From positions 64,001 through 90,944 of the IMG/VR virus record IMGVR_UViG_3300026549_000060: a DNA stretch of 26,944 nucleotides, one strand, 5' to 3'. Positions 2,582-12,398 of the stretch are shown here, piece after piece. This DNA is from a virus. Taxonomy: Duplodnaviria; Heunggongvirae; Uroviricota; Caudoviricetes. The stretch's first letter is position 1. The number at the start of each line of letters is the position of its first letter. The position numbers were made by a program, and so were the translations under genes. The notes under the pieces are model-generated. The model had not been told where the DNA came from. It made no database searches and saw only the letters and a list, made by a program, of their open reading frames with translations.

Positions 2582-3284
2582 ATACACAGATCTTTGTGCT
2601 ATTATTAATAAGATAAGCTATATTACTACGGATATGGATATGAGGCATTCTGAAATGAGCCAAAGATCTGGTGATAATACTTATAATATCAATATAGATT
2701 TTACTCCTATACATTCTGATCTTAATCTTGGTATCATCAATATACCTACGAAATATCCTCTCCTTAAATCATTAATGGATACCACTTCAGAAAAGTATAT
2801 TATTGATACACTTAAAGATAAGAATTCCTATATTATTACAGATACTATTAGTGATATAGAATTAGCTATTCCAGATTTTACTAATTTCACTACTAAGTAT
2901 GATGAAAGTCTTAAGATTGATTTAAATCAAAATGATAAGATTTTTACAGTAAATTTGGATAAAACTCTTATAAAGAAACTCAATAATTTTGTAAGAATCC
3001 TTGGTGCTGAAACAGTTAATATTGATATAACTAATGGTGAAGGTAAGATAAACATTAGTAGTAAGTCAAAAGTATCTACAGTTAAACTTATTTCTGGCTT
3101 TGAAACTAATGTTGATAATTTTAAAACAGATATTAATATGGAGTGTTTTAAAATGAGTGTAGGTGATGAATGTGTGATTACTGCTTATAAGAGATCAAAA
3201 ACAGCTTGTTATGTGGATATTCAAACTGAGCTATCTGGATGTAAAGTTAGCTATAAACAAAATAGACAGGGGATATTCAAATGA
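2559..3284 (+). CDS. Putative sliding clamp (gp45/PCNA-like)
   Basis: 241 aa, similar in size to PCNA/gp45; sits in the clamp loader-primase cluster; no diagnostic motif recognised, so the call is mostly contextual. Confidence 0.4.
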   Translation: MVELTKDKYTDLCAIINKISYITTDMDMRHSEMSQRSGDNTYNINIDFTPIHSDLNLGIINIPTKYPLLKSLMDTTSEKYIIDTLKDKNSYIITDTISDIELAIPDFTNFTTKYDESLKIDLNQNDKIFTVNLDKTLIKKLNNFVRILGAETVNIDITNGEGKINISSKSKVSTVKLISGFETNVDNFKTDINMECFKMSVGDECVITAYKRSKTACYVDIQTELSGCKVSYKQNRQGIFK

Positions 3285-6853: not shown

Positions 6854-6928
6854 CTCGCCATAGTTCAATGGAAAGAATCCGGGTCTTCTAAACCCATGAT
6901 CTCAGTTCGATTCTGAGTGGCGAGGCCA
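6854..6928 (+). tRNA. tRNA-Arg (anticodon TCT) with encoded CCA
   Basis: Acceptor CTCGCCA/TGGCGAG, D arm GTTC-AATGGAAA-GAAT with A20, anticodon loop CT-TCT-AA, T arm CTCAG-TTCGATT-CTGAG, discriminator G, CCA at 6926-6928. Confidence 0.95.
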
Positions 6929-9537: not shown

Positions 9538-9747
9538 ATGCTGTTATATACGACTGGATGTTCAAAATGTAAAATCCTTGAGTCAAAACTTAATGAAAAA
9601 GAAATTAAGTATGAAGTGTGTGAAGATAAAGAGCTGATGAAATCTAAAGGATTCAGATCAGTACCTGTTCTTGAATTGGATGATGGAACTATACTGACCT
9701 ATGGTAAAGCAGTCAAGTATGTGAATAATTGGGAGGATAATCAGTAG
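9538..9747 (+). CDS. nrdH: Glutaredoxin-like NrdH redoxin
   Basis: CSKC redox motif, GFRSVPVL cis-Pro region, 69 aa, directly upstream of nrdD. Confidence 0.8.
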   Translation: MLLYTTGCSKCKILESKLNEKEIKYEVCEDKELMKSKGFRSVPVLELDDGTILTYGKAVKYVNNWEDNQ

Positions 9748-9748
9748 T

Positions 9749-10279
9749 ATGGCTGGATACTTAGATATTAGTATTAAGTTAGATGAAGACTTTGTTGAAT
9801 GTCTTAAAGGATTAAAGAAAGAATACGGTAATAAATTAACTATACTCAATGGTTTGAGTAATAGCCAATTAAATAATACAGAATTTATAGATAACTTTGT
9901 TGATAAGAATACCTCCACAGCAGATGCATCTATAGATGGTAATGCTAATGCAAGTACTAAAGATATCTGCTCATTAATGGTAGAAATGAGAAAACCAGAA
10001 CTTAAGCTTGAATCATTTAATAAAATATTCTATGAGTTAAAGAAGAAGTATGGTGTTGAAGTAGCTAGAGACTGGTTAAAGAATGAGTGGGATGGGCACT
10101 TTTATAATCATGATGCCTACAGTACTAGCTTTTTGCCTTACTGCTTTGCTTATGATTTAAAAGATCTGGCTGAGAAGGGGTTGTATTTTATTAAGGACAA
10201 CTTTAACCATCAACCACCACAGCATTTAACTACCTTTACAGACTTTGTTGGAGAATTCGTGTCCTATATGAGCAATCGT
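9749..10279 (+). CDS. nrdD: Anaerobic (class III) ribonucleotide reductase, exon 1
   Basis: YNHDAYSTSFLPYCFAY and HLTTFTDFVGEFVSYMSNR; the reading frame stops (TAA 10283-10285) just inside the intron. Confidence 0.9.
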
Positions 10280-10503
10280 GGATAAAACTGCGACTTTATA
10301 GAGTAATCTATATTGTAATTCAATTGTGAACTGCTGGAAAGGTTAATTAACCTAATCAGCATCTACGTTTAATAATAATTAAACAAGATCAACGACTATT
10401 CCTTTAAAAGGAAGTAAAACTAACTTTCATAAAGTTAAAGTTTGAAGTGCAAGGGCCTAAATATTAGGTTGAAGATATAGTCTTTTAGTTTTTTAAGCTA
10501 AAA
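10280..10503 (+). mobile_element. Group I self-splicing intron, IA2-like, no homing endonuclease
   Basis: P1 TCGT|GG-ATAAAA-CTGCGA with the U.G pair; P2 TATAGA-GTAA-TCTATA; P element GAACTGCTGGAAA; Q AATCAGCA; R TCAACGACTA; P7.1 TTCC/GGAA; P7.2; P8 GGCCTAA/TTAGGTT; S GAAGATATAGTC; P9 TTTAGT/GCTAAA. The 3' boundary is uncertain by a few nt. Confidence 0.9.
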
Positions 10504-11913
10504 AGTTCAGGAGCTTGTGGACTCCCCAATTTCTTAATTTACTCATTTTATTTTTGGAAGAAAGATTGTGAGAATGGGTATTACCCCAAAAGTCAAGAAT
10601 ATTATAGAGACAATGAGTTCCAACGCATAATTTTTAAACTGAACCAACCGTACCTGAGAGTGAACCAAAGTTCATTTACAAATTTTACTATTTTTGATAG
10701 AGAATATTTTGAAGCACTTTTTGGAGATAAAACCTTCCCTGATGGAAGTTATATGATTGATTTTGAGGAAGAGTTTATTAATTATGAAAAGGCGTTTATG
10801 AAAGTTGTGTCAAAGATTAGAGAAACTAATATGATGACATTCCCAGTATTAACCTTTTCATTGCTTAGAGTTGATGGTAAGTTTATAGATGAAGAATTTG
10901 CAAGGTTTGCTGTGCAGCATAATATGCGTTGGAATGACAGCAATTTCTATATTTCTGAGGATGTGACAAGTCTCAGTAACTGCTGTAGACTGGTCTCTGA
11001 CATTAATACTCCCTTCTTTAACAGCATTGGGGGCACAGCATTAGAAGTAGGATCTATTAAGGTTAATACAATTAATCTTGCTAGAATTGCATATGAAACC
11101 AATACTAAAGAAGAGTATATGAAATTATTAGAAGAAAAAACTATTTTGTGCTTACAGACATTGGATGTAATTAGACACATTATAAAGAGAAATATTGAAA
11201 AAGGATTACTTCCAAATTATTCTTGTGGAGCACTTCATTTGGAATCTCAGTATAATACTATTGGTATTATTGGCATATATGAGGCAATTCAGAAGTTTGG
11301 TTTTACCTATAAAGATGAATTTGGTAATACCTTCTATACTGATGAAGGACTTCAGTTTGCCAAAGATTTTATGCAGAAGATGATTGATGTTAAGACTGAA
11401 TTTGCTAAAGATAAGGATTATATGATTAATATTGAACAGATTCCTGGAGAAAGAGCTGCGGCTGTTCTTATGCAGAAAGATCAGATATTCTTCCCAGATG
11501 AAGCTTATGAGTTACCACTGTATGGAAATCAATTTATACCATTAGGTGTTAAGACTACTTTACAAGAAAAAGTCAGAGTGTCTGCGGTATTAGATGCTGC
11601 CTGTTCAGGCGGTTCAATACTGCACGCAAACGTTGATGCACCTATACATGATTTTGATACTGCATGGAGATTGATTAACTATATTGCTGATAGTGGCGTA
11701 AAGTACTTTGCTTTATGTGTAAGGATTAGCACCTGTAAAAATAACCATGCATATTATGGGTCCAGGTGTCCAATCTGTGGAGATCCTACAGAAACCACAT
11801 GGCAGAGAATAGTTGGCTTTTTAACACCAGAGAAATCATACTCTAAAGAAAGAAAGGCTGAATTTGCTTTGAGAGATTGGTTTAAAATTAATGATATGGG
11901 AGAAACCTTTTGA
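10504..11913 (+). CDS. nrdD: Anaerobic (class III) ribonucleotide reductase, exon 2
   Basis: Frame is open from agt tca gga gct tgt (SSGACGLPNFLIYSFYFWKKD), 156 nt upstream of the ORF-track start; NCCRL, C-terminal Cys cluster and glycyl-radical motif RIVGFL. Spliced product would be 646 aa. Confidence 0.92.
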   Translation, partial: SSGACGLPNFLIYSFYFWKKDCENGYYPKSQEYYRDNEFQRIIFKLNQPYLRVNQSSFTNFTIFDREYFEALFGDKTFPDGSYMIDFEEEFINYEKAFMKVVSKIRETNMMTFPVLTFSLLRVDGKFIDEEFARFAVQHNMRWNDSNFYISEDVTSLSNCCRLVSDINTPFFNSIGGTALEVGSIKVNTINLARIAYETNTKEEYMKLLEEKTILCLQTLDVIRHIIKRNIEKGLLPNYSCGALHLESQYNTIGIIGIYEAIQKFGFTYKDEFGNTFYTDEGLQFAKDFMQKMIDVKTEFAKDKDYMINIEQIPGERAAAVLMQKDQIFFPDEAYELPLYGNQFIPLGVKTTLQEKVRVSAVLDAACSGGSILHANVDAPIHDFDTAWRLINYIADSGVKYFALCVRISTCKNNHAYYGSRCPICGDPTETTWQRIVGFLTPEKSYSKERKAEFALRDWFKINDMGETF

Positions 11914-12398
11914 GATTAACTAATCTTAAAGATGAAGACTTTGTGAACTATAAGAAGCCATCACTTTTTATAGGCACATGTTATTGTGATTTTAAGTGCT
12001 GTGATGAGGGTGGTTTTGACAGGTCAATCTGTCAGAACCATTCTCTCTACAATTCAAAACAGCATGAGCTTACTTCAGAACAACTTTATAACAGATACAT
12101 CAATAATCCAATTACTTCAGCTATAGTTATAGGTGGATTAGAACCTATATTACAAGTGGAAGAAGTTATTGAGCTTATATCATATTTTAGATCTAAAGAT
12201 TGTAAAGATGATTTTGTTATATATACAGGTTATACTGAAGAAGAACTCATTAATAATCATATTCTTGACAAATTTAAGAAATATGATAATATTATATTCA
12301 AATTTGGTAGATTCAAACCAAACCAAGAAAAACATTGGGATGAAGTATTGGGAGTATATTTGATTTCAGATAATCAATACGGAAAGAAGGTATCTTAA
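11910..12398 (+). CDS. nrdG: Class III RNR activating enzyme (radical SAM-type)
   Basis: Cys cluster CYCDFKCC, IGGLEP, IYTGY, KFGRF; start overlaps the nrdD stop (TTGA). Confidence 0.88.
   Translation: MRLTNLKDEDFVNYKKPSLFIGTCYCDFKCCDEGGFDRSICQNHSLYNSKQHELTSEQLYNRYINNPITSAIVIGGLEPILQVEEVIELISYFRSKDCKDDFVIYTGYTEEELINNHILDKFKKYDNIIFKFGRFKPNQEKHWDEVLGVYLISDNQYGKKVS

Follow-up and report, generated by a model that had tools for sequence, protein, structure and literature searches.

The window analysed here, a 26,944-nt stretch of phage DNA taken from a 90.9-kb IMG/VR virus record, contains a group I intron in nrdD, the gene for a class III ribonucleotide reductase, and the 3'-terminal base of this intron is A10503 (coordinates are positions in the window, and all features named with them lie on the plus strand). 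In group I catalysis the terminal guanosine (omega-G) is regarded as a rule with almost no exceptions, and it is built into the pipelines that are used to find intron boundaries. Comparison with an intron-less allele places the intron at 10280-10503; it is 224 nt long, matches the Rfam family RF00028, contains no open reading frame (ORF) and, given the presence of both P7.1 and P7.2, looks like a member of subgroup IA. From the comparison of its copies it is suggested that this A-ending element is a working intron, a reading that we consider probable.

Both ends of the intron can be fixed at the level of the DNA. In the intron-less allele, L116, the exons are 100% identical to those of the window and position 10279 is joined straight to position 10504. 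The boundary cannot slide in either direction (the bases G10280 and A10504 are unlike, as are T10279 and A10503), and as a consequence the inserted unit is exactly 10280-10503 and its last base is A. This confirms the 3' end that had been proposed in the sequence-only reading, an earlier prediction made from the letters of the window alone: in addition to the L116 junction, the A is retained in three assemblies that are identical to one another and in two copies that have diverged, and an in-frame G is restored by no indel or substitution. A second intron-less allele, L112, is 96% identical and encodes an NrdD of 646 aa, which is the length of the proposed spliced product. The terminal G expected of a group I intron is thus missing here, and the exon junction demands an end other than G; the RF00028 model places its final position on G10505. 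The alternative joins that the earlier reading had listed were correct in both coordinates and products: a join of U10279 to G10505 shifts the frame, one of G10281 to G10505 yields SNRG-SGAC and one of U10279 to G10497 yields SNR-LK-SSGAC (hyphens within such motifs mark the joins). When the in-frame joins of a nearby U with G10488, G10497, G10505 or G10510/10511 were enumerated by hand, the conserved motif was produced by none. As a control, protein-guided mapping of boundaries was applied to the other nrdD insertions found in relatives, where it separates inteins from true introns. A canonical U...G solution exists for the introns of L015 (910-1178), L036/L038, L039, L040, L022 and L114, and among the introns mapped only that of the window has none.

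On both sides of the intron the protein sequence aligns to NrdD. Exon 1 (9749-10279; 177 codons, its translation ending in SYMSNR) reads on into the intron as a single G and then stops, and it matches the NrdD of T. maritima in PDB entries 4coi and 4u3e, two sequences that are the only PDB matches of the window's NrdD. Against 4coi, exon 1 has an E of 4e-27 and aligns as far as Q169, and exon 2 (10504-11913; 469 codons and a stop, starting SSGACGLP) has an E of 1e-110. Across the exon join 4coi reads SNQ169-SSGAVG without a gap, and within exon 2 RIVGF aligns to RIVGY of 4coi and CPICG to CPVCG, in the glycyl-radical region and the Cys-rich C-terminus respectively. PF13597 is recorded for both nrdD ORFs, and the similarity to NrdD extends over the full length of the protein. 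In the 51 related IMG/VR loci, the residues that follow N-[R/L] are [S/T]-S-G-A-[C/V]-G wherever the locus is readable (47/47), several carry the DNA AATCGT-AGTTC at this position and none of the 51 has an insertion at the site of the window's intron. All 112 of 112 further full-length homologues read NR-[S/T]SGA, and in the two sets together (47 + 112) G follows N-[R/L] in 0 of 159 and an insertion at this point occurs in none. The junction SNR-SSGAC, which the earlier reading had matched to an NrdD motif, is borne out by the intron-less allele and by these homologues, in which the residue is S or T and never G.

The RF00028 match covers 10270-10505 on the plus strand (47.3 bits, E 5e-11) and spans the full model, 1-253; this model is built without P7.1 and P7.2 and misaligns that part of the intron. 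The secondary structure was tested on an alignment of five distinct intron sequences, made up of copies at the window's insertion site (site 0) and copies of a sister intron that is described below. Of the 66 modelled pairs, six change on both sides; the pairs as a whole are 99.4% paired across the five sequences, the individual helices are 95-100% paired, and the P3-P8 core and the P3/P7 pseudoknot are present. P1, a hairpin of 6 bp at 10276-10293 (UCGUGG/CUGCGA, 10276-10281 with 10288-10293), is supported by the alignment, by RNAfold and by Rfam. It contains the wobble pair U10279.G10290, which marks the 5' splice site where the sequence-only reading had put it and is invariant in the five sequences, and it is extended by the pair 10281-10288, which is G-C in the window and U-A in the sister intron. 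P3 (10324-10452) pairs 10324-10328 with 10448-10452, and inside it the structural alignment places P4 (10332-10337/10356-10361), P5 (10341-10344/10349-10352), P6 (10362-10364/10386-10388), P7.1 (10399-10404/10408-10413) and P7.2 (10421-10427/10431-10437), together with P6a (10367-10373/10378-10384), in which three pairs are changed on both sides in L125. By the same alignment P8 is a hairpin at 10455-10469. The two strands of P7, GACUA at 10394-10398 and UAGUC at 10478-10482, are invariant in the five sequences, and so is their G10394-C10482 pair, which we take to correspond to the guanosine-binding pair G264-C311 of Tetrahymena; the G-binding pair is intact, as had been stated earlier.

The intron's 3' end is framed by two pairings that show covariation. 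The first is a combined P9.0/P9 helix (referred to as P9; 10484-10502), in which UUUAGU (10484-10489) pairs with GCUAAA (10497-10502). With this covariation in its favour, the helix takes the place of the U5/A5 hairpin to which the Rfam alignment points as P9. The helix is UUUAGU/GCUAAA in the window's intron, whose counterparts in L123 and L125 have UUUAGU/ACUAAA, and the sister intron has AAUAGU/ACUAUU, such that the two outer pairs are flipped (U-A in the window; A-U in L113 and L129) and one pair is wobble in some copies and Watson-Crick in others. G10497 is paired with U10489 within the helix, and the earlier objection that an omega-G at this position would break P9 therefore stands; the base is also not conserved. 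RNAfold adds a pair between U10483 and A10503 that extends P9. Immediately 3' of P9 the three site-0 copies have A where the two sister copies have G and, judged from the alignment, this base (10503 in the window) is the homologous omega position in both intron types. The second pairing is P10, in which the guide AACU (10286-10289) pairs over 4 bp with exon-2 AGUU (10504-10507). This pairing had also been identified correctly in advance: it covaries with the sister intron, two of its pairs being changed on both sides, and 90% of its cells are paired in the alignment, a value that drops to 20% when the register is slid by +2 as omega-G10505 would need.

The sister intron is found 19 nt upstream, inserted after the equivalent of T10260, in the two loci L113 and L129, and over P2-P8 it is ~98% identical to the window's intron. 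Its upstream exon ends in GAATTCGT, the intron runs from ATTTTAAGGATGCGAC to ACTATTG and the exon resumes with ATCATTTATG; the boundaries are those of a canonical U...G intron, and excision restores EFVSFMSNRSSGA. The two introns have in common the P7 pocket, the position of P9 and the 5' splice-site pairing UCGU/GCGA: at each of the two insertion sites the bases just before the intron are UCGU, and the guide with which they pair is the same, GCGA. They differ in the last base, which is the canonical G in the sister intron and A in the window's, in the P1 loop and P10 guide (GGAU in the sister, AACU in the window), in J7/9 (UA in the sister, U in the window) and in the orientation of the outer P9 pairs given above. 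Given this likeness, the window's intron appears to be a member of a small family that also occupies the site 19 nt upstream. The exon of the window holds the upstream UCGU target (10257-10260) in an unoccupied state. A more diverged variant of the intron at the -19 site, followed by a 415-aa GIY-YIG ORF, occurs on a Logan SRR12710963 contig (P0140) and in L128, and is probably an endonuclease-carrying member of the same family. A different intron is present in L114, 9 nt downstream of the window's site (AGT GGT-AGGCTG...TTAACCG-GCTTGT), and three group I insertion sites, at -19 (L113/L129), 0 (window) and +9 (L114), are thus found within 28 nt of the conserved NrdD motif.

The A-ending intron itself was recovered from several further assemblies. 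L120 (JGI 3300039431) and L124 (ENA ERZ27252073, a contig of 285,694 nt) are both identical to the window over 4254 nt, and 10 contigs encode the exon-1 product with its read-through into the intron. In L123 (Logan SRR32996458), where the exons are ~97% identical to those of the window and an intein is also present, the intron occupies the same site and departs from the window's by a single change in P2, an additional U and G10497A, and L125/L126 contain a third version with ~14 differences in 223 nt, in which position 10497 is likewise A. Both versions keep the end CUAAAA-AGUUC. Two other contigs, L117 (JGI 3300026526) and L118 (Logan SRR7971121), stop exactly at 10279, and these breaks would fit mixed intron-plus and intron-minus populations; given that alleles with and without the intron coexist, the intron appears to be optional in the population. 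A short contig, L130 (ENA ERZ28612950, 1450 nt), combines a 5' end from the -19-type intron with a 3' end from the site-0 type, a join that would remove 19 exon bases and shift the frame, and it would seem to be a chimera made during assembly across the shared core, or else a natural recombinant that is dead. Wider searches returned little that resembles the intron: megablast of the region found no match among GenBank phages, and a distant blastn of the intron gave only 73-75% similarity over ~100 nt to introns of Staphylococcus jumbo phages. An exact pattern for P4-P6 matched a single intron, an unrelated one, in IMG/VR, and the six introns that it matched in metagenomes share no homology with the window's outside P4-P6; a scan with an exact J8/7-P7-J7/9 pattern gave no match, and the 50 matches to a 15-mer taken from the P1 loop and guide were all due to chance.

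The case for splicing is made by the way in which the gene and the intron have diverged. In pairwise comparison of exon 2, the three A-ending alleles show a synonymous divergence (dS) of 0.165-0.183 and a nonsynonymous divergence (dN) of 0.002-0.003, with dN/dS at 0.010-0.016, and in none of them are the 646 codons interrupted by a stop or frameshift. When the window is compared with L125, differences are present 12 nt before the intron and 6 nt past it, with no co-conversion tract; given that divergence in the flanks of the intron equals or exceeds that elsewhere in the gene, the introns of the window and L125 have co-diverged with their host gene and are not a recent arrival. The changes among the A-ending introns are loop changes, wobble-preserving changes (in P2 and P9) and paired double changes (three of them in P6a), together with one weakened P5 pair, and the core is untouched. 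If both the intron and the gene were dead, the intron would be expected to decay at the rate of silent sites and the dN/dS of the exons would be near 1. Neither is observed, and this strong purifying selection makes it likely that the intron splices accurately.

It is possible that the intron is instead crippled, such that a G-to-A change after insertion blocks ligation or misdirects it, for example to G10505 with a frameshift and a stop ~22 codons on, and that the insertion persists in a non-functional nrdD because the gene is dispensable or through homing at the level of the DNA. A number of observations weigh on this side or against a working intron. The ancestral base at the omega position, as read from the canonical sister intron, was probably G, and the guanosine pocket in P7 is unchanged. 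In Tetrahymena, a change of the terminal G to A with the pocket intact reportedly impaired exon ligation strongly (work attributed to Price & Cech 1988, Michel et al. 1989 and Been & Perrotta 1991), and a cryptic acceptor could be provided by G10505, which lies two bases further downstream, with a frameshift as the result. In the comparison of the window with L123 a low-divergence tract, 10145-10716, surrounds the intron, and by this co-conversion-like tract the intron has in part spread by recombination or homing, for which splicing is not required; one member of the family apparently has a GIY-YIG endonuclease ORF, and intron-plus and intron-minus alleles coexist. Furthermore, the selection argument consists of three alleles and assumes that the A was already present in the common ancestor of these introns, and the RF00028 score lies 2.7 bits under the gathering score of 50. 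However, a crippled intron is unlikely, given that three A-ending alleles have reached a dS of ~0.17 with a dN/dS of 0.01-0.016 and 646 codons free of stops and frameshifts, and that the flanks in the window and L125 are as diverged as the remaining gene. In addition, the compensatory and wobble-preserving changes, which spare the core, are unexpected of a dead RNA, and the P10 guide fits exon 2 at this particular site and is invariant in all three copies.

Two further explanations would keep a terminal G. If the cuts fell after G10281 and G10505, the protein (SNRG-SGAC) would have the length of its homologues, the guide AACUGCGA would also be able to pair with UCGUGG-UU, and the last position of the Rfam model on G10505 would be accounted for. 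This is very unlikely, because a G-C pair would then stand at the 5' site, in contrast to the UCGU/GCGA wobble site of the homologous sister intron, and because the intron-less allele reads CGT-AGT and not CGTGGT; moreover, none of the 47 + 112 homologues has G at that residue, and the +2 slide costs most of the P10 pairing. If G10497 were the true terminal G, the U rule and the G rule would both be satisfied in frame and the mature protein would contain a two-residue insertion, SNR-LK-SSGAC. This is extremely unlikely, given that the base is A in L123 and L125/L126 and is paired inside P9, that P10 would be impossible, that no homologue has an insertion here and that the 6 nt in question are missing from the intron-less allele. 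A sequencing or assembly error at the terminal A might be considered, given that the record is a metagenome assembly, that L130 is chimeric for the two intron types and that assemblers can mis-join across a shared core. Such an error is scarcely credible, since other samples gave two more assemblies with 4.2 kb of identical sequence and two diverged copies that retain the A, and since both ends of the intron fit the same insertion site with no exon base lost or duplicated.

For a working intron with a terminal A, the following course of splicing is proposed. In the first step, by homology, an exogenous G in the G10394-C10482 pocket would attack after U10279, which would be held in P1 by its wobble pair with G10290. 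In the second step, the 3' OH of U10279 would attack the A10503-A10504 bond. This bond would be pre-positioned by the 6-bp P9.0/P9 hairpin, which starts one base after P7 and ends right before the terminal A, and exon 2 would be kept in register by the 4 bp of P10 (AGUU/AACU), with the result that base-specific docking of a G would be less important than usual. The ligated message would read AGC AAU CGU-AGU UCA GGA, encoding SNR-SSGAC, the invariant NrdD motif, and at the expected RNA junction AAUCGU would be joined to AGUUCAGG. The model thus suggests that the A may be tolerated through the abutment of P9 on the last base, the U10483-A10503 pair and the 4-bp P10. That the A-ending form ligates efficiently with an unchanged pocket, the end of P9, a possible U10483-A10503 pair on P7 and P10 together replacing the docking, is a further proposal whose chances we regard as evenly balanced.

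Upstream of nrdD, and directly adjacent to it, is a glutaredoxin/thioredoxin-like ORF of 69 aa (9538-9747) with weak Pfam matches below the gathering cut-offs, and downstream is an nrdG-like activase (Fer4_12; 11910-12398). The sister contigs were retrieved by exact-protein look-ups of neighbouring ORFs, among them this 69-aa ORF, and since they reach 281-288 kb the phage genome is probably ~285 kb in size. An Rfam scan of the rest of the phage's own genome gave no second group I match. Elsewhere in the window, a tRNA gene at 6854-6925 (Rfam, 56.8 bits) lies upstream of a recA-like gene, and its anticodon loop, CUUCUAA, suggests a tRNA-Arg(UCU).

The nrdD genes of relatives carry a variety of other insertions. 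Another group I intron recurs at the NQSA-FTN site (L015 910-1178, 89.6 bits; L114 ~2960-3212; the starts of L121/L122). In L039 (3266-4522) and L040 (3491-4777) there are insertions of 1.26-1.29 kb for which canonical U...G boundaries are possible and in which no Rfam group I match was found at E <= 0.001; these may be divergent ORF-carrying introns. Intein-like insertions are in frame, 927-1044 nt in length, start with Cys and end with His-Asn before Cys, and have weak Pfam matches to Intein_splicing and faint ones to LAGLIDADG_3. They are located at the exon-1 'PYC' site in L006, L007, L017, L019 and L038 and at the 'SNC-C' site in L015, L030-L033, L041, L042 and L045, and are also present in L111, L115, L123 and L125; in some nrdD alleles an intein is found together with the A-ending intron.

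The nrdD (sunY), td and nrdB introns of phage T4 are group IA2 introns that lie at conserved motifs in genes of nucleotide metabolism and are optional in populations. The window's intron shares with them its location in a phage nucleotide-metabolism gene and the P7.1/P7.2 architecture. The T4 introns end in G and sunY carries a homing endonuclease gene, whereas the window's intron ends in A and has no ORF, and T4 NrdD belongs to a different branch of NrdD from that of the window. Literature searches found no published phage group I intron that lacks omega-G. Outside phages, the hexacoral mitochondrial ND5-717 intron ends in A and is called unique by its authors (PMC8146996; PMC6545197). It resembles the window's intron in its terminal A, and its compact core resembles that of model group I ribozymes; it differs in being mitochondrial and obligatory, in holding whole genes in P8 and in a reported reduction in splicing efficiency (PMC8146996; PMC6545197). 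Furthermore, the window's intron has a closely related G-ending sibling, and the passages covered of those two papers describe none for ND5-717. A 23S rRNA intron of Coxiella burnetii 'lacks the canonical Omega G' according to the title of Raghavan et al. 2007, J Bacteriol 189:6572 (cited in PMC3428280 and PMC5423948); it is a self-splicing intron of a bacterium and by that title, like the window's, a group I intron without a terminal G, and it differs in residing in rRNA and not in a phage protein gene. The sequence-only reading had called a terminal A rare and had named the hexacoral case, and this precedent held; the rarity is tempered by these published cases, of which the Coxiella intron had not been named there. 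The window's intron joins this rare known class of group I introns without omega-G. A recent intron database demands a flanking U and gives the last intron base as 'most frequently' a terminal G (PMC11835236).

The particular value of the intron lies in the combination of a boundary proven at the DNA level and a near-isogenic sibling that ends in G. The A-ending and G-ending siblings differ in ~30 nt only, namely the P1 loop and guide, J7/9, the outer P9 pairs and the last base, and given that the differences are confined to these nucleotides the dispensability of omega-G is directly testable by part swaps. Annotation in which a terminal G is compulsory will wrongly report frameshifts in such genes, as the Rfam alignment did here through its end on G10505. 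If the A-ending intron does ligate its exons as proposed, the terminal G held to be 'essential' would not be needed where a defined structural context, one that can be transplanted, is present.

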